Assembly: GCA_036785375.1 (NCBI GenBank)
Contig: JAWMAR010000148.1
Coordinates: 1,364,001 to 1,428,000 of the forward strand
Direction: 5' to 3'
Length of the DNA: 64,000 nt
DNA from: Leucoraja ocellata
Taxonomy: Eukaryota
Shown in pieces: positions 1 to 29,018 of this stretch (positions within the stretch are counted from its first letter, which is position 1; each line of letters begins with the position of its first letter). Position numbers and translations under genes: made by a program. The notes beneath the pieces were generated by a model. It had not been told where the DNA came from. It saw only the letters and a program-made list of their open reading frames with translations, and made no database searches.

Positions 1-75
1 ATGGTGAATTTCATAATTAGGGTCCACCATCATTGACAGGTGGCTTCCTACATATCGGAAATTCTCCACACAATA
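1..75 (-). mobile_element. RTE-clade LINE fragment (RT C-terminal region)
   Basis: Minus strand reads ENFRYVGSHLSMMVDPNYEIHH, resembling the RTE/BovB F.YLGS.LS....D.EI..R motif; a related fragment lies near 53.5-53.9 kb. Confidence 0.5.
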
Positions 76-189
76 AATATGTAATGTGTTTCCTTGGATT
101 CGCATTTATCAAAAAATTCAACATATGTTTTTTAAATTTAGAATCTCAACAAATCTACATGGAAGGAGAAAATATAAACAAATACATAC

Positions 190-675
190 CATGTTCATTA
201 TTGGTTTTACTTGTCTTTCCCAATATCATTTCTTGCTTAATAACCATTAGCTTTTTCACAATGTAGAACGCTTTTGCTAGATGAGCATCCACCAGCAAGT
301 CTAGCTCTTTCAGGAAGTGTAAGACTTGGTAAAGTAACTGTGGTTTTATCTTAACCCTAACAAGAATGAGTGGATCAACTTTGGTAATCTGATTATTCAG
401 CCTCTGATCACAGGTTGGAAGTGGGTGGAACTCCAAAGTTTTCCCCAAAGCATCTCTCAGAACATAATTGGTCACTTTTACAAGAGATTCACATTGCAGT
501 AGTATTTCTTTTACTTCTGTCATTCTCTGGTAGATGGTCAGCAAACTTTTCTCCTGTTTGTCTTTCCTTGATATTGTGCTCCGTACAAATCGTTTGTGCA
601 GTGGGTATATGTCAGATGAGTTGGTTGTGAAGTATGACAACTTCCAATGAGTGCTTTGAATTTGTTGATCACCAT
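190..675 (-). CDS. Coding exon 3 of an unidentified type II membrane protein gene (candidate CEMIP by synteny); gene continues past the left edge
   Basis: Acceptor tttctgttctttag|AT at 675 and donor CATG|gtatgt at 190. The 486-nt exon is open and phase 1-1, in frame with exon 8644-8996 (CK|DGDQQIQSTHWKLSYF...HKRFVRST...KTNNEH). Confidence 0.65.
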
Positions 676-1049
676 CTAAAGAACAGAAATTAAATATTCA
701 GATTAAAAAAATAAATTACATGGGTTGTAACTCTTAATGAATACTTATACTTGTCTGTTTATTATTATTATTATTATATATTTTAAAATGCAATGAAGAC
801 AGACTGAATTTATGATCACATCTTTGTCAGTATCAAGATGTCCAAAAACACAAAGTCACAGCTCAGTATTTTGTTTTGATGTATATAAGCACCACCATAA
901 TATGCACATAATCTGATTTACGAATTTACCGAAGCATGAATATTGACATGGGGACTGAGCAAATTTTTTATTTCACCTTCAAAATGATACTATAGAACAT
1001 CTCATGTTCACTCGAGGAAGTAGTTGGGGTCCTGGATTAATAATGTTAT

Positions 1050-1385
1050 CAAATTGACAGTACATTAGTTGGACCCCAGCTGGAATACTTTATGCAGTTT
1101 TGGCTGGCACAACTATGGAAAGGTTGCAATTACACTAGCGAGGGGGAAAAAGGATTTTTAACCAGTATGTGGCTGAGGTGGAGTGTTTCAGCTAACAGGA
1201 GAGCCTGGAAAGGCTGAGAATGTTTGCCTCAGTATGAAGAAGACTGGGAAGAGATCCGATTGAGAAACAAAGCTGAGGAGCATAGATTAGATTAGTAAGA
1301 AACGTTTACCCTTGGCAGACTTATACATTACCTGAAGTAAATGTTGGGAACTTTAGAGAGATTTAAGGAAGATTTTTTCTCCACC
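1050..1385 (+). mobile_element. Degenerate CR1 LINE 3' fragment
   Basis: Remnants of the LVRPHLEY..QFW and LERVQ.RFT coding motifs. Confidence 0.6.
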
Positions 1386-1799
1386 ACAGGCCAGTCCCTG
1401 AAGGGGTGTGAGATTGGGTACTCCCACCCTCACCACTGCTTTTGCCCATTATGAAGTGTTAGACAAGAGAACTTAATTTGTTATTAGCATTTTACATTTT
1501 TGACAAGATAATATATTTGACCATCCTTGGTTGCCTTAAGGAGATCAGGTGTCCATCGTGCCGGTGTAGAGTTACAGGGGCCATTGCGTTCCTTCATCAA
1601 AATTATAACAGACCTTCAAAAAGTATCTTGTTAGATACAAGTCATTTAGAACATCCCAGGTGGTGAAGATGTTATAAAATGGAAGCCTTTTGTTTCACTT
1701 TTGAATCACATTTTCCTCTTTTTTGTAACAAAGAAATATGAGAATTTAAGAATTAATGTGTTGGTAGATCACACAGCAGAATTTTGCTTCCTTGTAAAC

Positions 1800-2490
1800 C
1801 ATTAAACAGATTTAAAGGCATTATTGCCCTTTTCACCACCTTATCTATCTTGTTCTCACTTTCAGGCAACTATGTATCTGTGCATCCAGGTCTCTCTGTT
1901 TTACGACTCTCCCCAAGGCCCTGTTTTATACTCCTGTTTTGCTTTAACTTACCAAAAAGCATTAATTCACACTCATTTGAGTTAATTTCCATCTGCCATT
2001 CCTTTACACACTTTCCCATTTGATCTAGATCCGCTATAATCTTAGACAATCTTCTCAGTGTCCATCGCACCACCAATCTTGGTGCCATTCGCAAAGTTAC
2101 CATTTATATTGTTAATGTATATGACAAAACAGGGGATACAGCACCGTTCCTGTGGCACACCATTGGTCACAAGCCTTTCCAATCTGAAAAACAATCCACC
2201 ACTGTCACCATCTGACTCCTTCCACCAAGCTAATTTTGTATGCAATACACCGACTCATTCCTGGATCCCATGTGTTCTCACCTTCCAGTCTGGCCTACCA
2301 TACAGGGCATTGTAAAAAAACAGCTAATGTCCATGTAGTCAACATCTACAGCTCCACCCTTGTCAATTTTCTTGGTAACCTCCCTCAAAACCTCAATCAA
2401 ATTCATGAAACGCAAGTTCCCATGCGTAAAGCCATGTTGACTATCCCTAATTAGTCCTTGCTTTTCCAAATGCAGATAGATCCTGTCTCT
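1800..2490 (-). mobile_element. CR1 LINE reverse transcriptase fragment
   Basis: Minus-strand ORF pieces LIRDSQHGF, VDVDYMD, VTNGVPQ, YINNI..FANGTKIGG and WQMEIN..CE; frameshifted. Confidence 0.85.
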
Positions 2491-2594
2491 CCATGGAAAG
2501 GGGGGGGGGGGGGGTTTATGAAACACATAGTTTCATAAACGTCCTTCAGGAGATGAAATGTGCCAGGATTAGCTGATCTGGGCAATATATGACT

Positions 2595-2757
2595 TCAATC
2601 ACTGCTTGTGGTTGACTCTTAAATGCCACTTGAAACAGCCCAGCAAACCACTAAGTTGATGGTGGTTCATCACCACCTCAATGAGCAATCAAGGAAGGAC
2701 AATAAATGATGGCTTTGCCAACAGGTGCCCAGTCCCCAAAATCAGAATTAAAAAAAA
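2595..2757 (+). mobile_element. Ancient LINE/SINE 3' tail (L2/DeuSINE-like)
   Basis: ggttgactcttaaatgcc...aataaatgatggctttgccaac followed by an A-rich end, a recurrent chondrichthyan repeat tail; family assignment uncertain. Confidence 0.45.
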
Positions 2758-2899
2758 TTACATTGAGGATACAGGAACAAGTTAAGATGTAGTTTGTGTT
2801 TAAACACCAAGAGGCAATCGCCCCAGAATGTATCTTAATTGTTAGGATTATCTTAGGTAGACAATCTTACAACGCATTTGTAGAAATTTGAAGCTGCAC

Positions 2900-3410
2900 T
2901 ACTTTTCATTCTTGCAGCAGTACGAGGCAGGAAAGAGTAATACTGAGTGGATTGTGTGTGACGTGGCTATTGGCTTTGTCCTTCTTGATGGTAGAGTTCA
3001 TAGGTTTGGAAGGCTCTGTTGAGGTAATCCAGGCACGCACCTGCAATGCATTCGAGGGCCACAACACTACACAAATGTTTGGATGTGGTGGAGAGAATAA
3101 ATAGTTAGGTTGGTTGATAAGCAGCAGTCAAGTGGCCTGCTTTGTCCTGGACAGCATCTCAAGTATTGCTAGAATTTCACTCATCCGGGCAATTGGAGAG
3201 CTTTTTATTCTGCTTCAGACGCGCTTTGTTTATGGTGGAAAGAATAAGATGGTGGAAAGCATTAGGGTGCCAAGACCAACCCAGCATTTGGCCTTTTCTT
3301 GCAGCCACAGTACTTGGGTGTCTGGCCCAGCAGATTTTCTAATCAATGGTGACCCCCTAGGATGTTGATGGTGGTAGACTTGGAGAGAGAGAGAGGCAGG
3401 TCAGTGCATT
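2900..3410 (-). mobile_element. L2/Crack-like LINE RT fragment
   Basis: Minus strand encodes a ..AVQDKAGHLT-like motif and ILGGHH; a same-family fragment lies on the plus strand near 19750-19990. Confidence 0.5.
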
Positions 3411-4729
3411 GAGAAAATGTTTCACAAAGTGTACTTGTCAATATACATAGTCTATGATTTGGAGCAAGGGTAAAGATTTGAGAAATCGACTGTGAGGCAG
3501 CAACTGTGAAGTGAAAATTAATAACCATTAAACATAAATTATTTATAAACATATATTGAAATGAGATTTGAATACAAGAACTTCAATTGGCCTTGAATTA
3601 GTGTTTTCTGAGCATTACACAAAAATGTGCCGACAATTATACATGCATGCTTGTCAATGGAGATGAGGCTCATTTTGACTCATTTGTCAATGACGGAGTC
3701 TTACGTGCAGTTCAGTGTGAGTTGAGACATTGAGAACATGCAAGTATTTGCAGGTTTCCTTTTTAGAAAGCCTGAAAGAAAAATGGTGCAGGATTTTGAG
3801 AGGTGGACGCACAAAATAAAATCTAATTCCCAGAGGAGGAGATTGTGAGGTCAATGCTAAAATTACTAATTCATTGGAAAGCTAGTTACCGTGGTAAGTT
3901 GGCACTGGAAGCCTTACAAGTAGAATTATGAAATAGAAAATCATTTTAAATGCTGATGGGAACTGTTTATTGTTTTGGTAGCATTTGAAGATGTAAAACT
4001 CAAATTCTAAGATTAGATAAATGTGTAACAAGGGTGGAGTAATTCATTAGCAGTAAGATTTCAACTTCCATACAGATGCAGTTAAACCCTATCAGGAAGG
4101 AAGTAAATTTCTCAAGGATTATCATGATAGTGGTCAGCAACAAAAACATTCATACAGCTGACAACATAGCTGGATATATTAGTAATGAGCTATGTATCAG
4201 ATTTCATTAACAGCCTGAAAGTGCATGGATATTTATTTAAAAGTAGTTGTATATTCAAGATCAATATAGTAATTAAAATAAAAATAGAAAAAACAGCCAT
4301 GAAGTATTCTAGACTTAGACAAGCCCACTTCAATACTGACACATTGACGGTTTGCAATAAGTTGTAATGGGGGGAAAAAGACAAAGACCAGTATGAAGTA
4401 TTCATAAAGGAATTTAATGGGATAAGTGCCAGTGTAGTTTCCTCAGGAGGAAAGCGTTTCAGTTGGCAACTAATTTGTAGTCTATGACTAAGAGCTTAAC
4501 ATGAAATTAAAAGAAAATGCATCTTTCAATACAAGAACCAACACCCAGAACCTGTCAACTAGGATAGATTGCAAGAACAATAAATGGCCACAGAACAGTA
4601 AAAGCTTGAAAAAACACGAGCAACAATATTTTTTATAACATTAGGAAACGTCAGAAGCAAAGCAGGATTCCTTGAAAACATATTAAAAAAAAAAAAATCA
4701 TGAATATTTTACATCAACATGTATTACAA

Positions 4730-5420
4730 CGAGGATGGCATACTGTCATCAGGACATGGGGTCCAAATGGCAGAATGTAAGTAGATCCAACAGGGATCTA
4801 CGTTGGAACCACAACTACTCCCAAAATGTGTTGATACATGGATGAAGGAGTGGAAAGCCACATCTCCAAATTTTCAGATGTCACAAAAGGTATGTTGCAT
4901 CGGAAAATACCTACGCCACCACAATACACGCCATTAAGGGCGGTTTAGGTAGAAGCAATGAATTGATATTAATAGATTAAGGAAACGAGAAAAATGGCAA
5001 CAAATGGATTGTAATCTTGACAAGGCACATGTTTTTGTACCTAAAATAGTAGAATAGAGTACCTCAAAAATGGTGAAAAGTTAGTAAGTATCAAGAACAC
5101 AAATAGGATAAGGGCCAATCCATTATCCTCAGTAGGAAAGTGTTCTAGAGGCGTCTTACATATCTAAAGAACTATGGTGAAAGAACTATGAGAACTATAG
5201 TGATCTCATTTTATAAGATCATAAAAATAACATGGACAGGAAAGAAATATCAAATAGTGGGTTTGTCTTTACAGCTTTAGAATTAGAATGCACAGGCCTA
5301 TATTTTAAGATATGAGGGCCTAAAAATGTAGGCTGAGGTGGCAAAAGTTGGTTTGTGCAACTAATACTTGATCTAAGTGAATGCTGGACAGGCTTGGAGG
5401 AACTATATGGCCTCCCTTTT
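4730..5420 (+). mobile_element. Highly degenerate CR1 LINE fragment
   Basis: QQGSTLEPQL, HISKFSDVTK (FADD remnant) and the CR1 3' end. Confidence 0.55.
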
Positions 5421-7907
5421 GTATGACTTTGTTATTCCTATTGCTGCTATTCTTTATTCCTTTATGGCTGCTATCTGTGTTGCAATGAAGTCTAAATCAA
5501 CAGAGATTAGACTCTGCAATATAGCTAGTTGCATACTCCATTTTGGAGATCTCGAGCATGCTTGCTACTATGCATTCATTGTGCATCTTCCTTAGATTGC
5601 TTCAGGTGAGCTCTTTCCAACAGAACCTGTTGCTCTTTGCAACAGAACGGTGTTGAACCTCTCCCTCTTAAGTTTTTCTCTTTCCTCTTGGCCCAACTTA
5701 AGCGATGGTTGCTTAATGTCCTATCGTATGTCATTTTTATTTTTCTGCTATCCTCTAAGCATGAAGATGCAATCCAACATTCAAATCCTGATTAATACAG
5801 ATTGTTAGGAGCTGAGTGATCAGACATATGCACTGAGTGGCATATGAGGCAGATGGTGCTCGTTGTAAGAAAATGTACCTGAAGGAGTACATTTGAAACC
5901 AAGGAGCTTCTTCCAACACCACACACAAACTCTTGAGCACACGAACTTCAAGCATGGACCTCCTTAATTCTCTGAGGATATAATGGCATGTCTACTTTCC
6001 ATCTCATCTGTCAAGATCTCCAGTGGAACATCCATGCAATACCTTGCAATGTTAAATAATTCTTCAATGTTCTTAGCTCAAATTCACTTCCTACATATCT
6101 ACCACCTGCCTCAATTAAAAAGCACCTCTCTTGCTTTGTACAACGTAGTCCGATTTCATGTTGCTACTAATATTCATTCCTGTTTTTGTTTCCACTGGAA
6201 TTTGAAATCATGTTGAAGAGGCAACAGGAAGTTGGTGTACTCTGCGTTATAATCAAGCGTTTTGTGTTATTGCATTTGGAATATTAGCATCAGTTTTCAG
6301 CAGTTTTGCATATAGGCAGCTGCATAAGCAGCCTGCTAATCAATATACTAACCAACCCCGTGCAAATAGCTTGAAGATAAATAATGATGCAACAGTTTAT
6401 TTGCTGAAATATTGCCTTTTCATGTGTTGTTATTAATTAGGGTGGGTAACTCTCCGACAGAGACAGCGACTAAAACATTACAATGAGCACATAATGTGCT
6501 CCCAGCTGTTGTAGTACGCCCTTTGGCCTGTGCCCAATACAAAGCAACAAAACAAACTGCTTTTACAAGTTGGGTTTGCATGTCTCTATCAACATTTGGA
6601 AGACACAATAAGAGCACCTAATAATTCCCACAGCTTGAAGGCATTCAGGTGCTTCTGGCTTTCTGGAGGTCAGTGATTTTCCAGTTTAGAGGTCTCTTCA
6701 GGTTAAGACAACTGGTGCCAGGTTGTCACCTGTAGTAGATGGAAATTAAATCAATAGTGCAGTCTTGCATATAATAGCAGGAAGAAAACAATTTAATCTT
6801 ATAGATGGATAATGCATGTTTTTTTCTGGAGCCCACTGAGATGGAATTTCCTCCTAAAAACGTGGAAAAGACTTTTTTAATTTTTTTTTTTTTTTTTTTT
6901 TTTTAAATGGGATAAGACATTCTGCAACATTTTATGAGATTATGTATGATTGGTGCCCTAACTCCATCTACTTGTCTTGATTTTATATCAGTCAATATCC
7001 TGAGCTGGAATTAGAAACCTCAGATTTAAAATTATTAATAGAGATAATGTTTTGTGGGCAAATACTCCACACTTCTATTACTTGCAATAATAAGAACTAC
7101 TTTCCAAGCGGCCTGCCTTCTAGTTAAAACTATTATTCCTTCATCCTTGAACTCCCGACTAGCAGAAAAGGATTTGCTTTGTCCCCCTTAACAATTCCTT
7201 TCCAAATCCTTCAAATCTGGTTCAAATCACCCATTAATCTTTGACTGTACAGGAAATACAAGGCTAGTTTATATAATTTGACATTATAACTTGGAGCAGT
7301 GGCAATATCCTGGGAAATTGTGCAGGACAGATTTACAAGAAATATTCATAACAGCAGCAACTTGTATTTGTATTATATCGTAATGCATCCAAACATTTCA
7401 AATTGTTCAAAGGAACATCATTAAACATTGTGCAGAAATACAAAAGATTGTCCCTACATGGTCTCTGTTGCATAATCTAATTCATTGATATACATTTATT
7501 ACACCAGCACAGATACTTAAGGAACACCAAAGGTTATTTTTCAAAATACGTGTACATATCAATTATTAATAATTTCTGCCTTTTACTTTCTAACTAAATT
7601 TCCACCCAGGTCAATAGCTTCACTTCAGTCTGTGGATTTTTATTATTCCAAAGTTTATTATATTGAACCTTGTTGAAAGCCTTCAAGTGTATAAACTGTT
7701 TCCATAAACAATACGATCTTCTACGTTAAATCCCCCCTTCCCAAAAGAAAATCCAATCAGTCCAGCTGGACTTACCCTGAACTAGATCCCTCTAATCATC
7801 GTGCCCTTCAGCTATTATGCATTATTACATATTTTAACACATCCTGCACAACCTATTATGTTAAAAAAAATCAGATTTTTCTTTAAGTAAATGTTTGTTG
7901 TTTTCCA

Positions 7908-8174
7908 ATCAAAAGAGCACACCCTTGTAACGGACTGTTCGAACTACTTCCCTCCGGCAGACGTTACAAGGCCTTCTACGCCCGAACCTCCAGACTCAGA
8001 AACAGCTTTATTCCCAGAGCTATAGCGGCTCTGATCTGGCCCTGCTGAGTGCCCCCCATCCCCCCTGGACTGTCTCCCTCAGATGGTCACGTCGCACATT
8101 ATTTAATTTTTTTGACATTGGTTGGAAGCTGCATACTAAATCTCGTTGCACTGATGTGCAATGACAATAAAAGA

Positions 8175-8209
<35 letters not shown>
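7908..8209 (+). mobile_element. Rex1/Babar LINE 3' end with (TTA)n tail
   Basis: From 7920 it reads HPCNGLFELLPSGRRYKAFYARTSRLRNSFIPRAIAAL, the typical Rex1 C-terminus, then AATAAA and a (TAT)n microsatellite at 8175-8209. CpGs are retained, so the copy looks young. Confidence 0.85.
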
Positions 8210-8210
<1 letters not shown>

Positions 8211-8643
8211 GGGCTAATTCCTGAACCAAGACAATATGGAATACTACAGCTTTTTTTCTTCAAGAACTGTGGATTTGTAAGTCATTACGTGCCATTATTT
8301 TTCCTGTACCATCTTCTATCTCACTTGAACGTAGTTGATTCCAGTCTTTGATTTTGTTTTATTAGTTTCCTGGGATGCCAAATGTACTCTAATTTTCTAC
8401 TGTCATGTTCTGCCGCTGCTCTATTTTATTTGTAATTTCCCATCCATCTGTGTGTAATGAACCTGTTACCCTTTTTATCTTTTGTCAAGTTTGAAATTTC
8501 TCACAGATCTGAGTCTAGTGTACTATTTACTTTTATTCTTTCCTTTTGGTTTCATGGCACCTCTCACTACTTATGTTCACCATCTTTCCATACCGTATAT
8601 ATATTCCCTTCTATTTTAGTAGTTTTAATGTTGTCTAGCTTAC

Positions 8644-8996
8644 CTTTGCAACTTTTTCCTTGGAATAGCTGTATCATGCCATGCCAGTGAAGTAAACCCA
8701 GTACAGCTACAGCAAAAACGGCAAAATACAGCAGGGGAAGTGCAAATTCTCTTGCTACCTCTGGGCTAGAAAACACTCTCCTCCTTTTCTTTAGTGTATG
8801 ATCCTCAGGCATGAGAAGCCTGGGAGCAGCTTCCAATGCAGGCGAGACATTTTGAAACAGCAACTGCTTTTGATGAGGGCATAAATGAAGGGACTGAGGT
8901 ATTGTACTTTGCGAAAACCTCTTAGCTGTGCAGTTGTCGCAATTGTCTTTGAGGGAAGATTGGAATTTGGGGGTTTCATCTGTTTGCATTTTGAAT
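8644..8996 (-). CDS. Coding exon 2 (cytoplasmic tail plus transmembrane anchor) of the unidentified type II membrane protein gene
   Basis: Acceptor tattgtcattttcag|A at 8996 and donor AAAG|gtaagc at 8644; 353 nt, phase 2-1. Encodes KKRRR followed by hydrophobic FALPLLYFAVFAVAVLGLL. Confidence 0.75.
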
Positions 8997-9414
8997 CTGA
9001 AAATGACAATAAAAAGTCAAAATTAACATGTAACCCACCACAGTGAAATCAATTAGTAATCATCAAATTATCATTGTAAACCAACATCTGTAGTTCCTTG
9101 TGTCCTTGATCACTGTAACCTTGTCTTAAGGATGATTGCGGGAGAGCCACTGGGTGTGGAGATGGTATTGGCGGATGAAAGGACATGGAAGAAGTAATTA
9201 CTGCCTTTGGATAACATCTATACATGGAATATATCAGCCTATCACATTTAAAGCTTCATAAGCCTCTTCCTTGACACCAGATTATTTTAATTTCTCGAAT
9301 CTAAACCTTTTGTTTACGTACGTCTTCTTAAATTACCATCCCATTCATCACTCTTCCTGTTCATTTTCTGCAAGTCTTGTATTTGCTTAAAATTGAAGTT
9401 GGTTGTGTTCATTA

Positions 9415-9691
9415 TTTGGTTTAGAGTTATAGCAATGCCGACCATTGATTACTCGTTCACACTAGTTCTATGTTATCCCACTTTCCCATCCACTCTGCAC
9501 ACCAGGGGAAATTACAGAGGCCAATTAACCTACATACCCACACGCCTTTGGGATGCAGGATGAAATGGGAGCTCCTGGAGGAAACAGTCACAGGGAGAAC
9601 ATGCAAACTCCACACAGACAGTACCCACGGTCAGGATTGAACCCGGGTCCCTGGTGATGCAAGGCAGCAGCGCTTGCAGCTGCACCATTGT
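9415..9691 (-). mobile_element. tRNA-derived V-SINE (HE1-like)
   Basis: B-box gggttcaatcc and V-domain gtgtggagtttgcatgttctccc on the minus strand. Confidence 0.8.
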
Positions 9692-9929
9692 TCTTGTCCT
9701 TTGGCCTGATATTTCTGTCTCCACAGATACCACCCGAACTGCTGCATAACCCAGTCATTAGATAAACATTTACATTTAACCTACCATCCATAGAAATTGT
9801 GAGTAACTATCAAATTAGAAGTGGGAAGCAAGAAAAAGGGCTAGCTTGAAAGATTTGTATGTTTTCTTCCAAATTACTTCCTGAATAAATATATGTATTT
9901 CTGACCTCTGGAACTCCATTCGCTGTTGG

Positions 9930-10320
9930 TCGAGGATGAGGGGAGATCTTATAGAGGTATACAAAATCACGAGAGGAATAGATTGGGTATATGCACAGAG
10001 TCTTTTACCCAGTGTAGGGGAATCGAGGACCAGAGAACATAAGTTCAAGGTCAAGGGGAAAAGATTTAATAGGAACCGAGGGGTAACCTTTTCACACAGA
10101 GGGTGGTGGGTGTATGGAACAAGCTGCCAGAGGAGGTAGTTGAGGCTGGGACTATCCCATCGTTTAAGAAACAGTTGGACAGGGTACATGGATGGGACAG
10201 GTTTGGAACGGTATGGATCAAGCGCAGGCTAGTGGGATTAGGGTAGCTGGGACATTGTTGGCTGGTGTGGGCAAGTTGGGCCGAAGGGCCTGTTTCCATA
10301 CTATTACTCTATGCCTCTAT
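9930..10320 (+). mobile_element. CR1 LINE 3' end
   Basis: MRGDLIEVYKITRGID...F.HR.V..WN.LP motifs and the gggccgaagggcctgtttcc tail. Confidence 0.85.
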
Positions 10321-10739
10321 GGAGGCTGCTCTTTTTAATTAAGGTCAGTTGATTTTCTTAAATCAAAGATCTAAATATGTGCATCTGAATATCTGAATAT
10401 TCGCAATATTCCAGGGAATAAAAGCCACAATTAGTGAAATGAAACAACTTAACAGCACAAAAAATAATTCCTTTCAAACAGTAATTCATTTAAAATTGAA
10501 TCTTTGAATCTCTTTCCAAACCTCACTAATTGAGCCAATCCCGCTTTTGGTTACAAATGAATAGATATTTTTAATATCTGATTATAACTCCAGATTTCGC
10601 AGTTACAAAATATGATTTACATCTGAAAAGCTCTCTGCTCTTCAAAAGTACCACATTCGTTTTTTTTTCCACCGCACTGTACATAGTTAATTATCAGATG
10701 TCAACCCGCCAATTTCCAACACCTACAAATATCACTTAC

Positions 10740-10798
10740 CTTGGTCCAATAAATTCCCTACGGCAGTTACTCTTAATGGTATGGTTTGTGTTTTTCAT
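10740..10798 (-). CDS. First coding exon of the unidentified type II membrane protein gene
   Basis: ATG at 10798 with an in-frame genomic TAG just upstream; reads MKNTNHTIKSNCRREFIGP(R). Consensus donor AAG|gtaagt at 10740 is phase 2, matching the next exon. Confidence 0.65.
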
Positions 10799-11419: not shown

Positions 11420-11830
11420 TACCGCGACATGGTCCCTAGTACCAATCTCGGCTTCTCGCCCGGTCAAACTGATACCTTTCTTTCCTCCGCTTTTGTTGTC
11501 GTTGATTGCAGCTGGAGCCAAAACAAAATCCACGTGGCATGTGACATCACCTGGCAGCGAAACGTTCGGGACAGCGAGCCAAGCACTGGGATCTCAAGCG
11601 CATCCCCAACCTGAAGCGAGAAATAAGCAGGACCACATGCAGAGTACCCGCCTCCAAAGCCGAGCTGGTAACTCGGGGTCGATGTGTGCAGGGAGCCGAG
11701 CTGCAGGCGCCGGCTCCCAGTAGTTCAGGCTGCGATGCGCAGCCTCGTTTCCACAGCCTTGCCTTTGGCTCAGCTCATTGCATCGAGTGTAAACCTCTAA
11801 TGTCGGTAAAATCCTGTACCGAGGGACAAA
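11420..11830. promoter_or_regulatory. CpG island, probable promoter of the downstream minus-strand gene
   Basis: Local CpG and GC enrichment in otherwise CpG-depleted DNA; CACGTG E-box at 11531; inverted repeat AGGCTGCG-ATG-CGCAGCCT at 11727-11745; candidate minus-strand donors at 11476 and 11423. Confidence 0.65.
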
Positions 11831-16025: not shown

Positions 16026-16245
16026 TCAAGAAACAGGCAGTTCATGACTAATGAACTGTTTCAATCTTTCAAGGTACTGCGCGTAAAGCTCAATGTCATT
16101 GTGGCCGGCTCCCTCGACCCAGAGGGGTTCCACTGCTCTTGGGCATTGCTCGTACATTGTAAGACCATGGGAAAAATCAATCACTTCATCCTCAGTACCA
16201 TGAATTACCAGCACGGGAGAAGCTACCTTGGTTATCTTGTCAATG
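16026..16245 (-). CDS. ABHD17C: ABHD17C coding exon 3 (last)
   Basis: Acceptor ttttgtctctttcag|C; [28 protein letters not shown]...[28 protein letters not shown], containing the catalytic Asp and His. Confidence 0.97.
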
Positions 16246-16889
16246 CTGAAAGAGACAAAATAAAGTTTGAAATACAAAAGTAATAATCCATCAAAAAAAA
16301 GGATTAAAAAGCAATAGCAATTTTCATATTGATGCATTAGTGAAAAAGCCAAAAGGTGAATCAGACTCCAATTGGTTTAGAATTACAAGCTAAAAAACTA
16401 CTCATTTTAAGACTTTTGACAGTTGAAAGATCTTGATGTCATTATCATCACACACAAATAAGAGATCGAGGTGTACGTGAGAGTAGGGAAGCAGTGTTGA
16501 AACCATTTTGCCATAATTTTACTGTGACAGAGGAGGCTTGAACAGCCAATTGTCCTCCTTTTTGTAATAACAGTATACCACTCGCTTTCCCCAATCTGCT
16601 CTACCAATCAACATGATTATGGCCAATTTCATTTTAGCCTCATTGCCTATGAAGAATCAATTTATCTCTGCTTTAAAATAACCCCCCTTTGAGGAAATGT
16701 TCCAAAGTAAAGAGAGAGAAAAAACACTTCTTGTCCTAAATCTGTAACTGCTGTATTTTCAAACAATAATCCCAAGTTCAAGGAAAATCCACCTACATTC
16801 ACTCTGCCAAGTACCCTTTTACCACTTTAACTGGTACTCTTTCTGATCTGTTGAGTATTTCATTTGTTGTTTTTATTTCATAAGACTGA

Positions 16890-17230
16890 AAAATCATGAG
16901 GGGAATAGATAGGGTGAATGCACAAAGTATTTTACCCAGAGTATGGTAATCAATAACCATAGCACAAAGGGTTATGGTGAGAGGAGAAAGATTTAATAGG
17001 AACCTGAGGTGCACAGAGGATGGTGGGTATATGGAACAAGCTGCCTGAGGGAGTAGTTGGGGCAGGTACAATAACAACTTCAAAAGACATTTGGACAGGT
17101 ATAGTATGTGGATAGGAAAGATTCAGAGGCATTTGGGCCAAACATGGACAGGTGGAACTATCGTAGATGGGGGCATCTTGGACAGCATGGGGAATTTTGG
17201 CTAAAAGACATGCTTCTGTGCTCTATGACT
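16890..17230 (+). mobile_element. CR1 LINE 3' end
   Basis: KIMRGIDRVNA and WNKLPE motifs with the CR1 tail. Confidence 0.8.
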
Positions 17231-17319
17231 AAGATTGTGAGTTAATGTCTTACTTCAGACAATTCAGTATATTTGGCAATTCAACGATTTGGCAATATTA
17301 GCAACAGGCCATACTTTTA

Positions 17320-17577
17320 ATTTAGCCCACTGAATCCACGCCGACCAGTGATCACCCCGTATACTAACTCTATTCTACACACTAGGGGCAATTTACAGGT
17401 CCAATTAACCTACAAACCTGTAGGTCTTTGGAATGTAGGAGGAAATCAGAGCACTTGGAGAAAACCCACCTGGTCACAGGAACAACATACAAACTCCGTA
17501 CAGTCAACACCCGTAGTCAGGATCGATCTTGGGTCTGGTACTGTAAGGTAGAACTCTACTCCTGCGCCACTGTGCTG
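17320..17577 (-). mobile_element. V-SINE (HE1-like)
   Basis: tRNA-like head and V-domain (gtacggagtttgtatgttgttcctgtgacc) on the minus strand. Confidence 0.75.
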
Positions 17578-17814
17578 GCTGCTAAGCAATGTACATATTT
17601 TTAACTCTGCCTTCAGCATGACCAATTCACAACAAGCCATAGCCACAGTTGGATAAATGATCTCAATGCTTGTGTTGTCATGGCATTCCAGGTTTGTTTT
17701 AATAAATTTAAGCACTTGTTGAGCGAATAAATGGAAGGGTATTTTGCTTTGAAGGATTTAGTATATGCGCAAATTAATGTACAGTAATTCACTAGTGATG
17801 TGGGAGTGTTAGTA

Positions 17815-17940
17815 TGGAGACATAAGGAACTGCCGATGCTGGTTGACCAAAAATGACACAAAGTGCTACATTCAATGGGTCAGCAGCATTTCTGAAGAAC
17901 ATGTGCGACATTTCGGGTTGTGGCCCTTCTTCAGATTGCT
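17815..17940 (-). mobile_element. Penelope-derived terminal repeat with hammerhead-like core
   Basis: CTGAAGAAGGGCCACAACCCGAAATGTC (17934-17907) followed by the family tail ...ccagcatcggcagttcc. Confidence 0.7.
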
Positions 17941-18255
17941 TCATACGAAGATTTGTATTGCAGCTAAAATATGCTTGCCATACCATTTGCTTGCTAACAA
18001 TTTCTTATGGGTGATGGTATATTACTTTGTGCTTGAAATGTTTTGAAGTCCAACTATCTAAATTCCATTCTGTCTACTAATTGTGCAATTCAGTATATCA
18101 ACTCCTTATTTTCACAACAAAGTGCTAAATCAATTTTGCATTTAGGAATTAGTTGGTTTTTGCCAGAGAATTACAGTAATTAATTGATGACACTTCCTCC
18201 TCCAGTACAGAATCTAACTTTCAAAATTACGTTACCAGTACGTTTCACCATATTT

Positions 18256-18370
18256 AAAAGTGCTGGAATATCTCAGCACGTTGGCAGCATCTCTGGAGAA
18301 CATGCATAGCTGACGCTTCGGGTTGAGACAGAGGTTCACCTGCACTTTAACCTCATCTACTGCATCCGCA
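18256..18370. mobile_element. Penelope fragment: inverted terminal repeat joined to a GIY-YIG endonuclease remnant
   Basis: Inverted tail at 18256-18329, then plus-strand QRFTCT / NLIYCIR (frameshifted). Confidence 0.6.
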
Positions 18371-18379
18371 GTAAATGCT

Positions 18380-19000
18380 ACTTGGAGGGGTTTAAACTAG
18401 TCTGACAGAGAGGGGAAAAACAACCCAAAGTAGTAGTGTGGCAAATGAGAAATTTGAAGCAAATGTAGAGGTTAAAGCAAGCGTATTCATTGAGCAGGCC
18501 AATCAGGAGCAAGACAGGGAAGCAAGGTCTGATTTCCCTGACTGCATTTGCTTTAATACAAAAAGTATCACAGGTAAAATAGATTAACAGAGCATGGAAT
18601 GGCATATGATTGCAATATTTTAGTTATAACAGATACATGATAGGCAAGATTCGCAACTCATTGTTCTGGGATATCAATGCCTCTAGCGTGACAGAGTGGA
18701 GGAAAACGAGGTGGTGGTTGCACTGTTGATCAGGGAGAACATCGCAAAAGTACTTAGAGAAGTTAACCAGGAAGGGATTAGGGAAGAAGTCCAGTGAAGT
18801 AACCTGGGTAAAAATAATAAAAGGGGTAATGAAAAACCTCATCTCTCTGAATGGGATATACTAGTGTTCCCATCTTCCCAATTATCAGCAGGAATTTGAG
18901 ATGCAGATATGTAGATAAATCACAAATAGGTGTAGGAATAATATGACTGTGATAATAATTTTAGCCTCCCTACTATTGGCTACGACTGCCTTAGTGCATT
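18380..19000 (+). mobile_element. Degenerate CR1 endonuclease region
   Basis: YDCNI..T.TW, RGGGCTV.I.E and PNY remnants. Confidence 0.55.
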
Positions 19001-19518
19001 GTACATTTAACCTGTGCAGAAAATCTAGACAAAAATGTCTTCAGAAGCTACTCGTGCGTTAAATGTTGAAAGAATTGGCAGAGTAAATGAATTAGTATTG
19101 CAGTTTAACCCATCTGGATACCACTATTTATTTTTTATTTAAAAAAATCAAGTTTTTACCACAGTATTAAGTAATCAAAGCTACAGTTATCTAGAAAGAG
19201 TTACACATTGCATTTTAAGCTGATCAGAGAGAGCCAGCATGCTGCTGCAACATAATGTGTGCCTAACAGATAAATTAAATCCCATTTGGAAGCTAACCTA
19301 ATTATGGTGTTCAAGCTGATTCAAGAATTTGATAAATAAAACTTATTCTCTGCTTATTGAAAATGATTTCAACATGAAGAATTGCAAATGAAGATGGATT
19401 TTTAGATTTGATGAGAATCAGAGTTTGATCAAAAATTAAATCATTGCAAAATAATCAAATAGGTAGAATTGCTTAGGCTTCCTTTTGAAGGCTGTCAATT
19501 GAACGGCTTTAAGAAAAT

Positions 19519-19573
19519 TCCTGGAATTTTGTCTACCTTTGATTTTCCAGCATCTGCAGTTCCTTCTTAAACA
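19519..19573 (+). mobile_element. Penelope-derived 3' tail with TSD
   Basis: ttttgtctacctttgattttccagcatctgcagttccttcttaaaca flanked by the ttaagaaaat direct repeat (19509-19518 and 19574-19583). Confidence 0.65.
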
Positions 19574-20279
19574 TTAAGAAAATCCCTTGTAATTGCCATC
19601 CTGTTCTCATGACAGGGTTACATAAATTAGTAAATTAAGTAAAACTTACATCAAACAGCAAATTTCAGATTGACTTGGAGGAAATGAAAGCATGAAAATT
19701 AAAACCTGAATGCTTTCGAACACCAACTACAAAAGTGTGTTAGAGGGAGAACATCCTGCAATGAGTGACTCACCTTGATATCCTCAAATCTTTCCATCGT
19801 CTTCAAGGTGCAAATCAAGTGTCATAAAATACTCTCCACTTGGACGAAAGCAGATCCAAAACAATCATTGTTGGACACCATCCAAGTAATTCACTTGGCC
19901 AGAATTCTTTCCGTCATACTAAATAAACATTATTTCCTTGAGTAGTATGCACAACTTACAGTGTGTATCAGTTATAAGTTGTGTTGGCTTCTTCAAATAA
20001 ATTAGCATGAAATTTCAGACTATATTGAATGGATCAGATCTATGAAGATGCAATTATTTTGCAATCAGATCTTGCAGAAAGTATAAGGGGTAAAGAACAA
20101 TGTTGTTCAATTTGCCATCGGAATAAATATTTTCATGAAATTGGAAGCATTCTCTGCATGGTGGTTCAAAACAAATACCCTTAAGTAAAGACGGATATTA
20201 AAAAGGGAAGTAAATATTACCATGGAAAAGGGAGGGAGAGAGAGAGGGGGGGTGGGGGGGGCAATGGTATCAATGCTTC

Positions 20280-20413
20280 TCTGGATAGACACAAAAAACT
20301 GCAGTAACTCAGCAGGACAGGTAGCATCTCTGGAGAGAAGGAATGGGTGACATTTCGAGTTGAGATCCTTCTTCAGACTGCATTTAAACCAGCATCTGCT
20401 GTTCCTTCCTACA
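20280..20413. mobile_element. Penelope-derived insert (inverted repeat plus direct tail) with TSD
   Basis: Minus-oriented repeat with degenerate core CTGAAGAAGGATCTCAACTCGAAATGTC, then a plus-oriented tail; flanked by caatgcttc (20271-20279 and 20414-20422). Confidence 0.7.
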
Positions 20414-21467
20414 CAATGCTTCCCAGGCTCTGGCCTGCTGAATGTCCAGTGTTACCCATTCCACCTTGGGCAGCTGTGTATTTATTTCATGAATTCCTCC
20501 CCTAAAGTGACACACATTCCAGCACATGCACATTTAAAAATTTCAGTTTTTGTTATCTGCAACATCTTATTTGCTGCTCTAAGCCAAGCAATACTTAGTA
20601 TTGACCAGGGTTTATGGAACAATAAATACAAACATTAGACTGTTTACATAAAAAGAACATGTCTGCGCTGAAATGCCTATATTATGCCAGAACGTATAGC
20701 TTAAAGTTCATGGGGTTCCCAAATGGCACCATTCTTGGCCAGGATATTCCATAGTTCAGAGTAAGAATTTGGCCCTAGAATCCACATTTTTTGGATGAGG
20801 TATATACAGTCAATTCACAGAATATTTTTCATAACAGAACGCACTGTACAGCTTTGGATCAACGCAAATTGACAGTAGATTTTCTGACATTGATTATTTT
20901 CATTTATGCAAAACAAGGAAAAGAACAGACTTCCATTTATGTAGTCTCTGTTTCACAAGCAGCGACGACGACTGGATTTGCCTCCACGGCAAACACAGCA
21001 CAGCAACCCAAGGAATCATTCGATTCAGTAAAAAATATCTAAATAAGTAACTTTTCTTCAGAATTTAATAATCTGGTTTTTAATCTACTGCCTTTTGTAC
21101 ATACCTGTTATTTTACTAAACCCAAAGAGATAAGAATATTAACAGCTAATTTACATGAATCTTTTCTTGCTAATATACATTTGTATGTGACTTAATATTT
21201 ACAACCTGTAACCTGGATAATCTGTATTTAATTGAGGGTCGAAGGGAAAAGAAGTAGAAAATTACTTGAATTACTAAATATGTTTCTACATCTTAAATGT
21301 GATTAAACCACGGATTTCATTTTTTTAATGAGTTAATCCAGCATGAAAGAAAATTGGGTACATTGGCATGTGCCCAATTTGCAGTGTTCTCTATTTAATG
21401 AAGGGTTTAAAGTGTACAAATGAACAAAGTTTTAGTAATTCAGATCATCAACTTTATCAGCACATAC

Positions 21468-21647
21468 CTTGGAAATGCATCAAAACAGAATGTTTTCCTG
21501 GTATCAGGGAAGGCCACACGCAGGCCAGACATAAGAGGCGAATGGAGGATAACAGCTGCACATTCATAACGGGATGCAAGATCAACTGTTGGAACCGTGC
21601 CAATACTCTGACCATACAGAATAATGTTCTCCGGACTAACACCATAC
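21468..21647 (-). CDS. ABHD17C: ABHD17C coding exon 2
   Basis: Acceptor ttttctttcag|G and donor CCAAG|gtatgt; 180 nt. Reads [60 protein letters not shown] with the GxSxG nucleophile. Confidence 0.97.
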
Positions 21648-23589
21648 CTGAAAGAAAATAGACAAATCTCAGATTTGAACAAAGTAAAATAAATTCCTTT
21701 CCAATTATTCCAAATACAATGCTAAATATATTTATACTTTTACCCACCCTACTCTTTTTCATGGAGTTATTGAATGGCCACAGAATAGGAAAGCTATTCG
21801 ACCCATCATGCCCCCATCAGCTTTCCATCAGAGCAACTCATTATTTGCACATCATCCTCCCTCCTTCAACCTCCCTCTGTAGCCTTGCAAATGTTTACTC
21901 ACCATGTATTTTTTTCCCTCTTGAAGCCTATAAGGAAACCAGCCTCTACCACATCTGCAGGCAATGCATTCTAGATTCCAATCACACTGCATGGAAAGTG
22001 TTTTCCTCGTGTTTTTATATACAGCCTTGATCTACACACCCCAGTTAGGGGAAATATTTACCGCACATCTACATGTCAAGCCCCTGAAGAACTTAATATG
22101 ATTCAATGATTTTTCTCGCATTTTTATGAAGTTAAGAGTCAGCAAACCCTGCAATTCTCTTGGAGTTGTCATGCAAATGATGATCATGCCCATTCCACTT
22201 TTAGACCGACATAATTTACACAGATTCAGAAGCATCACTTTGGTCATTGGAAGGTGAGGGTAAACAGCAAGGAGATGACAATCTTCTTCTATGAAGACAG
22301 TCATAAGAATGTTTGAGCTCCCTTGGTATGTCTACTTTTTCCCCTGACCTTATAGTTAAGTTTGAGAGCTGTGACTATTTCTTTTCTGTGACTTAAGAGA
22401 ACTCCACTACAGGTTAGGTTAGAATTTTAATTGCTGGAACTGTAAAGCATCTAAACAGGAAACCCCTCCTTATGGCCTGTTGGGGTTTCCTATCCAAGAT
22501 CACCTTACATTTGTCCTTCTGGAACTCTCCTGATCATTCTCATCAACATCAATGAAATATCTTCTATTTTGCATAATTAATGCAATTCCAGCACTCAAGA
22601 TTCATGCACACTTGCCAAACTGAACATTTTATTTTCCATAATAATAACTGGTAACAATTAAAAGGGGCATTAACAACAGGGTGCCTCAAACCTGAATTCA
22701 ATAACAATTAGAAAGACAAAGCTTATGGGCATGAAAGCACCAACGCTTCCTTAAAATGTTACACGCCACACTGATTTATAAATATCTAATAGCATAATGA
22801 AAATAACTTGACCATGCCCTCTGCAGCAGTGACTTAATGCCAAATTTGAGGGCAATTACAACTAGGAAACACATGGCAGTAACATGTGGACCCTAATTAA
22901 AAAGTAAAGATTTTTAACCACTATATACGGAAAATTCAAATTCCCAGCATCAGTGCAAGAGATGAAAAGTACAGCTATCTGGGGTACCAAAATGATCCCT
23001 TAGTACACATCCAGACAGAAAATGAAGAAAAACTGGAGAACGTAAAAATAGTACAGGAAATCCAAGTTTGCAGTGAAAATTGACAAACATTCTAAATTAT
23101 TACCTTTTATAAATATCAAATTAAGATCCTGCAAACAATATTAACAACCAAGCAATAACTTTAGGCATTGCTTGAAAAATGCTTCACTTTGTTGCCAGGT
23201 CTGGCGTCAATGTGATTCCAGAGTCATCAGTGTGATCGACTCCTCACCGACTCTTCGATTCAGGAACAATAAAACATGGACATAGTACTGCCATTTGCCA
23301 ATGATAACCACATCTCAGGAACAAATATTAAAAAAAACATTGCAACTACATTCGTACCCACTTGGAAATGCACTCCTTATCGTTTACAACTTGAAGAATA
23401 GGTTAACATCTCATGCCAAGGGCCGACTCCACTCCACACCCACCATATGAAATAGAACTTCAGTAAAATATAATGTAACCATGACCCCCTACCCCCAGCT
23501 CCCCTTACCAGTCTCATCTGTCGCCACCCACGGGTTCTGATCTATTTCCACTACCCCTGAAAAGTCCAAAAATCCCTTCCCATACCAAT

Positions 23590-23870
23590 CTCATCCATGG
23601 ATGCATTGCAGCCTGGTTTGGTAAATCAAATGCCCAGGGACAAATGCTCTGCAGAAAGTTGTAGACATTGCTGAATCCATCACAGGTATTGAATTTCCTA
23701 TCATCAAAGGGATTTAAAGGAAGCACTGCCTCAAAGAGGCCACTAATATCAAAGATACACACCACCCAGGCCAGGCTCTAATTTTGCTGTTACCATCAGG
23801 AGCCAAAGAACCATAACCTCAAGGTTCAAAACCAGTTTTTCCCATCAACCATACCTTGAACCACACTTCG
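23590..23870 (+). mobile_element. Rex1/Babar LINE fragment
   Basis: GCIAAWFG, LQKVVDIAESITG, HHPGQAL..LLPSG and RFKTSF motifs. Confidence 0.7.
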
Positions 23871-24003
23871 CAACCCTGACCACAATACCTCAGCTCCGAC
23901 CTACTATGGGCTTTGTTTTTACTGTGTTCAGCTCCGATCTACTACAGACACCTCTCTCCCACCTGTCCACTAACCTTGCAAATCTCCCTTCCCATCCCCC
24001 AAC

Positions 24004-24143
24004 ACTTCTTCTTCTTGCGTATGGTGTGCACAGCCTAAAGTTGTAAGGCAATTTGTTCTATTTGATCTTATTTGATCGTGCACACCAGGTTGATTGCATT
24101 TGTCAAAACAGGGCGGACCACGTGAAGGGTGCAATCTCCCACT
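24004..24143 (-). mobile_element. Short retroposon ending in (AAG)n, with an approximately 12-bp TSD
   Basis: Near-identical to 60943-61069; flanked by ccatcccccaac and ccaccccccaac (one mismatch). Confidence 0.7.
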
Positions 24144-24429
24144 CCACCCCCCAACTCGACACCTCATCTCTCCGGCCTTCCTACAACACTTCACTCCTCC
24201 ATCCCTTAATGCCAACACATCTCTGTTGGATTGAATTGCAGTTATTTTAATGTGAGAGGTTTGACAGATAAAGCGGATTAACTCAGGGTATGGATAGGTA
24301 TGTGCAACTGGCATGTTGTAGCCATTACAGATACCTAGCGAATAGAGGGACAGGATTGGCAGCTTAATATTCCAGGTGCTATAGGAGGTTATAGAGACGG
24401 GGTAAAATAGGAGGGGGTGTTGCTTTATT

Positions 24430-25790
24430 GAAGAAGCAGCCAGACCCAGCGAGTGATTGGATTGGCTGAAGGAAGGCTTTATCCTAGGTAAGTAAAGTTC
24501 TGGAGATTTAAAAAGAGAGCCAAGACTCAGACCGTGGCAATTACCTTGAAAGTCGCAGAGGAGCAGCAGCAGCAGCCAGACCAGCGAGTGAATGATGGAG
24601 TGGATTGGCTGAGATATCCTAATTAGTTGAATGGTTAGTTGACTTGATTAGATAAAATTAAGTTCAGGTCTAGGTGGGCAGCCTTGTTGTTGAGGGGAAT
24701 TGCCTTGGTGAGGTAAAGTGCGTGTTTTCGGCTCAAGAGACTTTGGCAAGGAGGCTACACTTGATTCCACTGAAGTAATGGCAGGCAAGTTGTTACAGTG
24801 TCTCTCTTGCATGATATGGGAAGTTAGGGACATTGTTGGTGCCTCTGACAACTATACCCGTGGAAATTGTGTCCAAGTGCAGCTCCTGAAGGACGGCGTT
24901 AGGGAACTGGAGCAGCAGCTGGATGACCTCAGGATCATATGGGAAACAGAGTTTCCTGGACAAGACCTACAGTGAGGTTGTCACATCGACGATACAGGAA
25001 GAGCGAAGGTGGGTGACAACGAGGAAGAGAAGTAAACATTGAGTGCAAGAGCTGTACCTATTGAAAACAGATACACCCTCTTGGGAGCTGGCGGAGCGGA
25101 CGACACAACAAGATTGAGTGGCAGACAGGACTGTGACTCCAACCCTGGGGCTGAGGCTCAACGGGGAAGAGTGACGTCAGGCAGAGCCGTAGTGGTGGGG
25201 GACTATAGTCAGAGATGTGGACGGGAGATTCTGTCGCAATAGGCGAGACATCAGGATGATATTGTTGCCAGGATCCAGGACACCTCGGAGTGGCTGCACG
25301 GCATTCTCAAGAGTGAGGGAGAGCAGCCGGAGGTTGTTGTGCATGTTGGAACGGTGGATATAGGCATGCATAATAGGATGTTTTGCAACACGAGTTTCCG
25401 AGATGGGTACAAGACGGAAAAGCAGGACCTGCAGGGTAGTGATCTCAGGATTGCTTCCAGTACATTGTGCTAGTGAAGGTAAGACATGGGAAATGAATAT
25501 GTGGCTCAGGAGTTGGTGCAGGGGGCAAGGATTTAGATTTCTGGATCATTGGGATCTCTTCTGGGGCAGTGGTGACCTGTACAAAACGGACAGGTTGCAC
25601 CTTAACTGGAGAGGGACCAGCATCCTAGCGGGCAGGTTTGTTAATGCTACACGGGAGGGTTTAAGCTAGATTGGCAGGGGAGTGGGATCTCGCACAGGAC
25701 AGAGGCACGTGAGAGGCTAGTTGGTATGGAGGATGGTGTGGGAAAGGTTAGTGGACAGAATAGGCAGGTGAAAGGTGGAATCTCTGCTGT
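24430..25790 (+). mobile_element. CR1 LINE 5' UTR and ORF1 (Cys-rich, coiled coil, SGNH esterase), frameshifted
   Basis: MAGKLLQCLSCMIWEV...VRELEQQLDDL from 24778; AVVVGD, VVHVGT and RVVISGLLPV...DRLHLNWRG esterase motifs. Confidence 0.8.
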
Positions 25791-26288
25791 TTGAAGGATG
25801 TTGTTCAGCTAGAAACAGAGTAGTGACAACTTGCAAGGATGTTGCAAGTAACTGAGGGCCTGAGTTATAGGAGGTTGGGCATGCAAAGACTTTATTCTTT
25901 GTAGTGCAGGAGGCTGAGGGATTATCTTATAGAGGTATATAAGATAATGTGGGGAATAGTTGGGGTGAATGCACAGAGGCCTCTACCCAGAGTAGGAAAA
26001 TCAAGAACCTCGGGACATGGGTTTAAGCTGAGAGGGAAAAGATTCAATAGGAACCCGAGGGTCAACATTTTCTACACAGAGGGTAGTAGGTATAACTAAC
26101 GAACTGCCAGAGGAGGTAATCAAGGCAGGTACTATAACAACATTTAAATTAAATTTGGAAGGGTACATGGATAGGAAATGTTTATAGGGATATGGACTAA
26201 ACATAGGCAGACAGGGCTTGTGTAGATGGGGCATCTTGTTTGGCATAGGCAAATTGAGCCAAATGATCTGTTTCCGTGCTGTATGACT
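25790..26288 (+). mobile_element. CR1 LINE 3' end
   Basis: RRLR.YLIEVYKIM motif and the ctgtttccgtgctgtatgactc tail. Confidence 0.8.
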
Positions 26289-26289
26289 C

Positions 26290-26760
26290 CTCCCCTTCCA
26301 ACCTGACCCCTCTTCTTCCCGTCCCACACCCCAGCTCAATTTCTTAGACTCCCAACCCAACACCTCCACCCTAACTCTCTCCCACAAATCCCCTCCATCC
26401 ATTGTTCTAATACATCTGCCCCCCCAATCACCCCATCCCCAACAAATATGCCACCCCCATTCTCCTCATCCCCTAACCATACACATCTGTCCCCCCCCGC
26501 AACCCCACCATCCCCTAACCTGATACAACTGCCCCACAATCTCCCCATCCCCAAACTCCACCACATCTGCCCCATAATCTCTCCATCCCCAATCTCCCTA
26601 ACCCCCCCCCCCCCCCCCCCAATTCACCTTCATTCCCAACCCGACACATCTGCCCCGCAATTCCCCCTTTACCCCACCCGATACTTCTCCCCAATCTTGC
26701 CTCGTCCCCCAACCCAAATCCTTCCCCCTACGGGCCCAACCTCCTTCCAGCACATTTGCT
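26290..26760. repeat. C-rich (G-rich on the ABHD17C sense strand) imperfect tandem repeat at the start of intron 1
   Basis: Recurrent acatctgcccc / ccatccccaa units about every 70-100 bp and a poly-C run at 26602-26620. Confidence 0.7.
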
Positions 26761-26769
26761 CCACGCTCT

Positions 26770-28797: not shown

Positions 28798-29018
28798 CAT
28801 AAGCACAATCATTCTTAAATACAAATATGTAAGAAAACTAGATTACACGAAGGCAATGTATATGAGCCACCATATTTCCAACACCATCTTGCATCTTTCA
28901 AGTTTCCAGGTTCTTAAAAATATATAATTTTAACTTGGCTTAAAGGCATGGTGAATCAACCACATTCCTACTCGTCTGTGCACAAATAAGAATGGTGTTT
29001 ATGAGTGTATGTTGTTAT

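Follow-up and report, generated by a model that had tools for sequence, protein, structure and literature searches.

Which gene lies directly downstream of ABHD17C in the skate Leucoraja ocellata, and is it the CEMIP that such a position suggests? The question is raised by a stretch of 64,000 nucleotides (nt) of the assembly of this species (contig JAWMAR010000148.1, here C148, positions 1364001-1428000; the window in what follows), in which an initial annotation had joined three exons on the minus strand into a hidden spliced gene, read either as a CEMIP retaining an ancestral or intermediate membrane anchor like that of TMEM2 or as an uncharacterised lineage-specific gene. The gene is real: it splices into exons encoding the G8 domain, it extends to a 26-exon model of 1588 amino acids (aa), it stands between ABHD17C and the true CEMIP, and it takes a sister position to TMEM2. 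We are confident that the three exons are the 5' end of this spliced gene, called CEMIP2-like below, and that the CEMIP/TMEM2 family has in it a third member in vertebrates, whose product is likely a membrane-anchored hyaluronan-processing protein with an ectodomain that furin may set free.

GT donors and polypyrimidine-AG acceptors are found at all three exons (59, 353 and 486 nt; coordinates of these and other features in Table 1), and their joins in phases 2 and 1 leave 299 codons without a stop, the third exon closing in phase 1, much as the initial annotation had described. In 300 local shuffles, a pair of stop-free frames of 149 aa or more never arose on the minus strand; chance open reading frames are rejected. 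For the RNA, four runs were mapped onto positions 1-9400 of the window, the oligo-dT raw-read runs being sampled at about 5% each; the runs differ in organism code from the best-matching DNA runs and may come from a close relative. The junction 8644>675 appears in three of the four, once as an assembled contig (X1) and twice as 3 raw reads from an oligo-dT run; the fourth run (X2) has no coverage of the exons. Contig X1 (3314 nt) covers exons 2 and 3, and its loose ends carry the flanking junctions: one is the 3' end of the first exon (10740>8996, matched by eye), and the other is the first 30 nt of the exon in which G8 starts, at C148:1348307 and 16 kb beyond the window, to which exon 3 is joined directly (190>G8-start exon). 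Both of these flanking junctions come from this single contig. All three junctions predicted at the outset are thus present in RNA, and the proposed membership of the CEMIP/TMEM2 family holds; exon 3 is joined to the G8-start exon, and the G8, GG and beta-helix exons follow. X1 skips the 48-nt exon 4, with and without which skate RefSeq isoforms are known; this cassette exon (C148:1358746-1358793) is very basic, carries a further RxxR and is absent from the aligned bony-vertebrate rows. A minor acceptor in intron 2, at 6729, is used by 4 reads (4 starts) in one of the four runs, and its use would yield a tail-plus-anchor product of about 147 aa.

The locus of the CEMIP2-like gene is present twice on C148, as inverted copies 1.1 Mb apart. 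The window's copy runs through exons 1-10 and then meets a gap of 200 Ns, after which the 3' part of CEMIP resumes at aa 1007. The second copy is complete (C148:250405-322232, plus strand), with 26 exons, 25 of 25 introns of the GT-AG type and an intact frame of 1588 aa; a truncated pseudogene is rejected. The inverted arrangement and the loss of exon 11 onward would also fit a recently duplicated real paralogue reduced to 10 exons. However, the truncation coincides with the 200-N gap, the copies are 98-99% identical with 7 differences across 10 exons, ABHD17B/TMEM2, MESD and one more locus are doubled in like manner, and the RNA runs carry a mixture of both copies' exon 2 variants. A truncated paralogue is hence improbable in our judgement, and the second near-identical copy is probably the other haplotype. 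The assembly as such seems to hold both haplotypes, with doubled loci of 97-99% identity beside 200-N gaps (C148 230-430 kb and 1.31-1.43 Mb; C517, C306) and with CEMIP partly present three times on C148. The gene order is ABHD17C, CEMIP2-like, CEMIP and MESD, the last on the opposite strand, and the gene directly downstream is a separate one, the exon tested there being 99% identical to Leucoraja CEMIP. We take the human order at this locus to be the same without the CEMIP2-like gene.

Regarding the identity of the gene, each of the five longer proteins that a search with exon 3 returned comes from a skate or ray, and the highest-ranking is an Amblyraja 'cell surface hyaluronidase-like' protein (96% identical) which carries G8, ILEI/GG, CEMIP beta-helix and CEMIP X domains. 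In the Leucoraja orthologue, whose exons were mapped in this genome, G8, two ILEI/GG, CEMIP beta-helix and CEMIP X all score above the Pfam cut-off; a Pfam scan of exons 2 and 3 themselves gave no family above it. The CEMIP2-like protein matched the TMEM2 ectodomain (PDB 8C6I) with an E value of 0, and a profile search of PDB returned TMEM2 and lectin-domain relatives only. In a tree of 46 rows, three clades were obtained, with the CEMIP2-like clade sister to TMEM2 (Shimodaira-Hasegawa-like approximate likelihood ratio support 100) and hagfish inside CEMIP, and a 21-row tree including this genome's own model again placed the CEMIP2-like clade as sister to TMEM2, outside the TMEM2 clade, with support 100/100. 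Approximately unbiased tests on 19 rows rejected both a grouping of CEMIP2-like with CEMIP (p 1.4e-8) and one of TMEM2 with CEMIP (p 1.6e-10). The tree rows were hand-picked from search results and include no mammalian TMEM2 and no lamprey; what weighs against the sister position is the weak support at the outgroup, at 79, 21 and 71/51 in the three tree analyses.

Gene structure and domain content point to the same placement. Counted from where the G8-start exon ends, all 21 introns have the order and the phases of TMEM2's 21, whereas CEMIP, mapped to aa 935 only, has extra introns in G8/GG. The Mucin2_WxxW insert (PF13330) was found by Pfam scan in skate CEMIP only and is absent from the CEMIP2-like protein and TMEM2. 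In the CEMIP2-like protein the hydrophobic helix lies at aa 104-122 and G8 begins after aa 315, with no short signal peptide directly before G8 as in CEMIP. A CEMIP orthologue with an ancestral TMEM2-like anchor, the preferred choice of the initial annotation, would have in its favour that the gene is the first downstream of ABHD17C on the same strand and splices into G8 exons; this position is indeed that of CEMIP2-like, but it is shared by the real CEMIP that follows. Because a separate CEMIP follows, and because trees, introns and domain content group the gene with TMEM2, it is not CEMIP, and that reading, to which the short signal-peptide-like ends of invertebrate and hagfish homologues are also opposed, is rejected as exceedingly improbable.

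The two known relatives help to define the new member. TMEM2 (also CEMIP2; a type II cell-surface hyaluronidase) has the same domain set, about 55% identity to the CEMIP2-like protein (55% between the 1588-aa model and shark TMEM2), an anchor about 82 residues past a conserved Met, like the one predicted here, and a place downstream of an ABHD17 gene: a second ABHD17 gene precedes it on the same strand at a distance of about 110 kb, this genome's own TMEM2 being on C517/C306. Unlike TMEM2, the CEMIP2-like protein has about 180 extra residues from anchor to G8 (a linker, a furin-like site, a helical domain and an optional basic exon of 16 aa), a tail without detectable homology, Tyr and Arg at sites 248 and 303, the ABHD17C-CEMIP locus, and no mammalian counterpart among the rows listed. 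The secreted CEMIP (KIAA1199, HYBID), its immediate downstream neighbour on the same strand, shares the family core but belongs to a separate clade which already includes hagfish, has a short signal peptide, and is 44-46% identical in skate. A search for ABHD17 genes listed only two close paralogues, each doubled, and no third (ABHD17A-like) locus among those listed, these counts being lower bounds.

Does the protein stay in the membrane? Both the KKRRR and the single hydrophobic helix first noticed in the sequence are present. The best 19-residue Kyte-Doolittle mean of the helix is 2.51, it spans 25 uncharged residues, and the net charge is +4 on its N side and 0 on its C side; for comparison, TMEM2 anchors have 20-25 uncharged residues, means of 2.4-3.2 and +5/+6 on the N side. 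Length, hydropathy and charge fit a type II anchor after a cytoplasmic tail, and the likeness to TMEM2's anchor, predicted from the beginning, is borne out in these terms. Counted from exon 1b, the tail would be about 104 aa. However, several alternative first exons, including 1a and 1b, feed exon 2, and the MQTD start in exon 2 is common to all isoforms whichever first exon is used, so the tail may be about 81 aa; rays and most sharks begin at a matching MQxD in this exon, and counted from there the helix falls at about residue 82, the position it has in TMEM2. At window position 8736, within the anchor helix, the RNA of the three runs covering the position mostly gives His where the window gives Pro, and His is also found in Amblyraja and most rays.

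In bony-vertebrate orthologues, the hydrophobic core is mostly shorter and has signal-peptide-like ends such as GSQA, CEA and LSHA, and HCDG occurs in three sharks; the topology may therefore differ by lineage. These features speak for a cleavable signal peptide with a long n-region, by which a protein of the same gene identity would be secreted like CEMIP. Signal-peptidase cut sites are governed by the -3/-1 rule, and in the skate, as read from the sequence, Trp or Phe stands at -3 of two obvious cut sites; moreover, the long uncharged segment, its hydropathy and its basic N side are as in TMEM2's anchor. We consider such secretion unlikely in the skate, and in cartilaginous fish the helix would probably stay uncleaved and serve as a type II anchor, the same segment resembling a cleavable signal peptide in bony vertebrates. 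Against an anchor inherited in common with TMEM2, alignment of the N-terminal tail with the TMEM2 tail by hhalign detected no homology (probability 1.8%), so that a shared origin is argued from position and exon layout only. Homologues of amphioxus, Owenia, Lingula and hagfish open with 14-18 uncharged residues at the very N-terminus; in view of these short signal-peptide-like ends secretion appears to be the ancestral state and the anchor probably a later acquisition, contrary to the ancestral or intermediate architecture first proposed.

In TMEM2 a single intron links anchor and G8; exons 3 and 4, both of phase 1-1, are insertions into it, and exon 3 encodes first a linker with KRFVR and then the helical domain. 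Of 45 orthologue linkers, 24 contain [KR]RxxR or Rx[KR]R, where shuffled linkers would lead one to expect 2.9, and of the 13 cartilaginous-fish rows 12 do so; for this count 11 of an initial 56 rows were set aside, their linker being short or the anchor pattern not matching, and the rows are related and include isoforms. A convertase cutting after the predicted KRFVR site would free the helical domain together with the G8/GG/beta-helix ectodomain, and this release is suggested only tentatively. Relative to the furin consensus, KRFVR has no basic residue beside its final Arg and is a minimal site, and most bird rows are without a furin-like motif, both of which count against cleavage. For the helical domain AlphaFold predicts helices with a mean predicted local distance difference test score of 68 (74-93 in the core blocks). 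A hidden Markov model built from 24 of the orthologue rows matches 54 of 112 rows of the paralogue, none of 10 TMEM2 rows and none of 120 rows of the CEMIP search; the eel gene model lacks the domain. Foldseek gave no match at E<=0.001, the best VIA-align hit (Z 6.7 over 63 residues, root-mean-square deviation 2.2) is at the level of a generic helical hairpin, and an ESM Atlas search gave no usable match, which indicates neither novelty nor absence. The stretch of about 95 aa before G8 thus appears to be an unannotated insertion without clear family or fold match.

What would such a protein do with hyaluronan? Substitutions that abolish TMEM2 activity map to lectin domain 1, at R265, D273 and D286 (PMC10206443). 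With TMEM2 residue numbering transferred by hand from the 8C6I alignment and that paper, the CEMIP2-like protein keeps the equivalents R469, D477 and D490, conserved in nearly all rows. The first GG lectin domain, with these three residues, may well bind hyaluronan, and on balance we lean toward a part for the protein in its extracellular breakdown; the best reading is likely an anchored precursor, possibly shed, acting in this process. Two points stand against it. His248 and Ala303 are tied to the activity of mouse TMEM2 (PMC10276149, PMC12423501), and the skate has Tyr451 and Arg507 at these sites, at which active mouse TMEM2 and CEMIP carry His and Ala. Furthermore, TMEM2's own catalysis is disputed: the purified human ectodomain is inactive in PMC10206443, and intrinsic activity of the soluble human and mouse ectodomain is reported in PMC10474455. 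The same gene may encode a non-catalytic protein, with a role in hyaluronan binding or in the regulation of CEMIP/TMEM2 such as has been suggested for human TMEM2, a serious possibility favoured by both points and opposed by the activity described in PMC10474455. It is also opposed by the near-invariance of the three residues of the first GG domain; besides, 51 of the 95 rows from outside cartilaginous fish retain His at site 248, and at site 303 even CEMIPs differ widely from one another (33 of 73 have Ala). A review (PMC11275217) gives CEMIP and TMEM2 as the only G8 hyaluronan-degrading proteins in humans.

As for distribution, orthologues among the matches listed come from chimaera, sharks, coelacanth, lungfish, bichir, sturgeon, gar, eels, amphibians, turtles, lizards, crocodilians and birds, and this range from chimaera and sharks to birds excludes the lineage-specific orphan considered at first. 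No mammalian name occurs in the 112 rows assigned to the CEMIP2-like clade (from the best 120 of 821 matches). An eel model fuses the CEMIP2-like gene (aa 1-1373) to CEMIP (1374-2665), so the tandem order is old. It seems quite probable that a TMEM2-type gene and CEMIP already stood in tandem next to ABHD17 before hagfish split off, that genome duplication doubled this ABHD17-(TMEM2-type)-CEMIP tandem into TMEM2 and the CEMIP2-like gene, and that one duplicate kept TMEM2 and lost CEMIP, the other keeping both until mammals lost the CEMIP2-like gene. CEMIP2-like would then likely be the true genome-duplication twin of TMEM2. It counts against the last step of this history that the mammalian loss is read from absence among the 112 listed rows, not from mammalian genomes. 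Taken jointly, the proposals would make a third hyaluronan-degrading protein of non-mammalian jawed vertebrates, TMEM2's true ohnologue, in which a disulfide-tied helical domain was gained by exon insertion and furin shedding switches a cell-bound form to a soluble one, and whose loss in mammals left human CEMIP and TMEM2 as survivors of an older tandem pair, not as genome-duplication twins; this combination as a whole is rather doubtful.

The gene can hardly be called hidden, as the initial annotation had it, since RefSeq annotates the orthologue in three skates, as 'cell surface hyaluronidase-like / CEMIP2-like': XP_032906156.1 (Amblyraja), XP_055517168.1 (Leucoraja) and XP_078283575.1 (Rhinoraja). 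The Amblyraja model is 97% identical over the full length of the 1588-aa model, with the same exons and no material difference, and the names are automatic. Because the gene is already machine-annotated, the present work is a clarification with testable extras, not a new system. In a literature search of titles and opening lines of abstracts, with subscription journals and supplements, where gene lists may name the gene, outside its scope, no description of the third paralogue, the extra helical domain, the furin-like site or the synteny was found. In Bufo bufo the orthologue is named CEMIP (by tree), and in several birds TMEM2 (by score rank, as in 'TMEM2 hyaluronidase'). Such labels hide the third clade, and with chicken, Xenopus, skate and gar all retaining a further paralogue, which several entries call TMEM2 or CEMIP, knock-out work and annotation in these models could be confounded. 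The simple synteny reading of CEMIP and TMEM2 as ohnologues would be corrected as well, and natural variants at the contested His248/Ala303, with a possibly naturally shed ectodomain, would bear on whether activity needs membrane attachment.

Table 1. Features of the CEMIP2-like gene and its upstream neighbour in the window (window positions)
Feature	Position	Strand	Evidence or remark
Exon 1a, alternative first coding exon	11476..11540	-	65 nt, GT donor, phase 2; N-terminus of RefSeq skate isoforms X1/X3
Exon 1b, alternative first coding exon (exon 1 of the initial annotation)	10740..10798	-	20/20 aa identical to Amblyraja XP_032906156.1; joined to exon 2 in RNA contig X1
Exon 2: common Met (ATG 8989-8987), cytoplasmic tail, KKRRR, hydrophobic helix	8644..8996	-	splice sites, homologues, RNA
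Hydrophobic helix aa 104-122, predicted type II signal-anchor	8690..8746	-	hydropathy, charge
Minor alternative acceptor in intron 2	6697..6729	-	its use would extend exon 2 by 10 residues and then a stop
Exon 3, symmetric phase 1-1, specific to the CEMIP2-like paralogue	190..675	-	splice sites, RNA, intron map
KRFVR, predicted furin-type (proprotein convertase) site in linker	581..595	-	motif conservation in orthologues
Helical domain, about 95 aa, two conserved Cys (aa 199, 226)	206..493	-	AlphaFold helices, hidden Markov model; no named family
ABHD17C, upstream neighbour	16026..27233	-	coding exons about 27233-26772, 21649-21464, and exon ending 16026; 94-97% identical to Mobula ABHD17C model

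Around exon 1a the observed/expected ratio of CpG is 0.85-0.98, against a window median of 0.28, and a promoter at this CpG-rich stretch is probable. The donor of ABHD17C exon 2 (21464-21649) and the acceptor of CEMIP2-like exon 2 (8996) are both in phase 2, and in Mobula three of the isoforms that RefSeq names 'ABHD17C' read through in frame from ABHD17C aa 1-214 into CEMIP2-like exons 2-3, as fusions of the two genes. A repeat at 7918-8165, with an RNA depth of about 50-70 and many mismatches, is probably an element of the short interspersed type. Transposon remnants lie at 28999-29923, 37365-37751, 41678-43640 and 25364-25669, comprising a Tc1/mariner transposase, a hAT dimerisation region, a reverse transcriptase of a long interspersed element and a GDSL-like piece.

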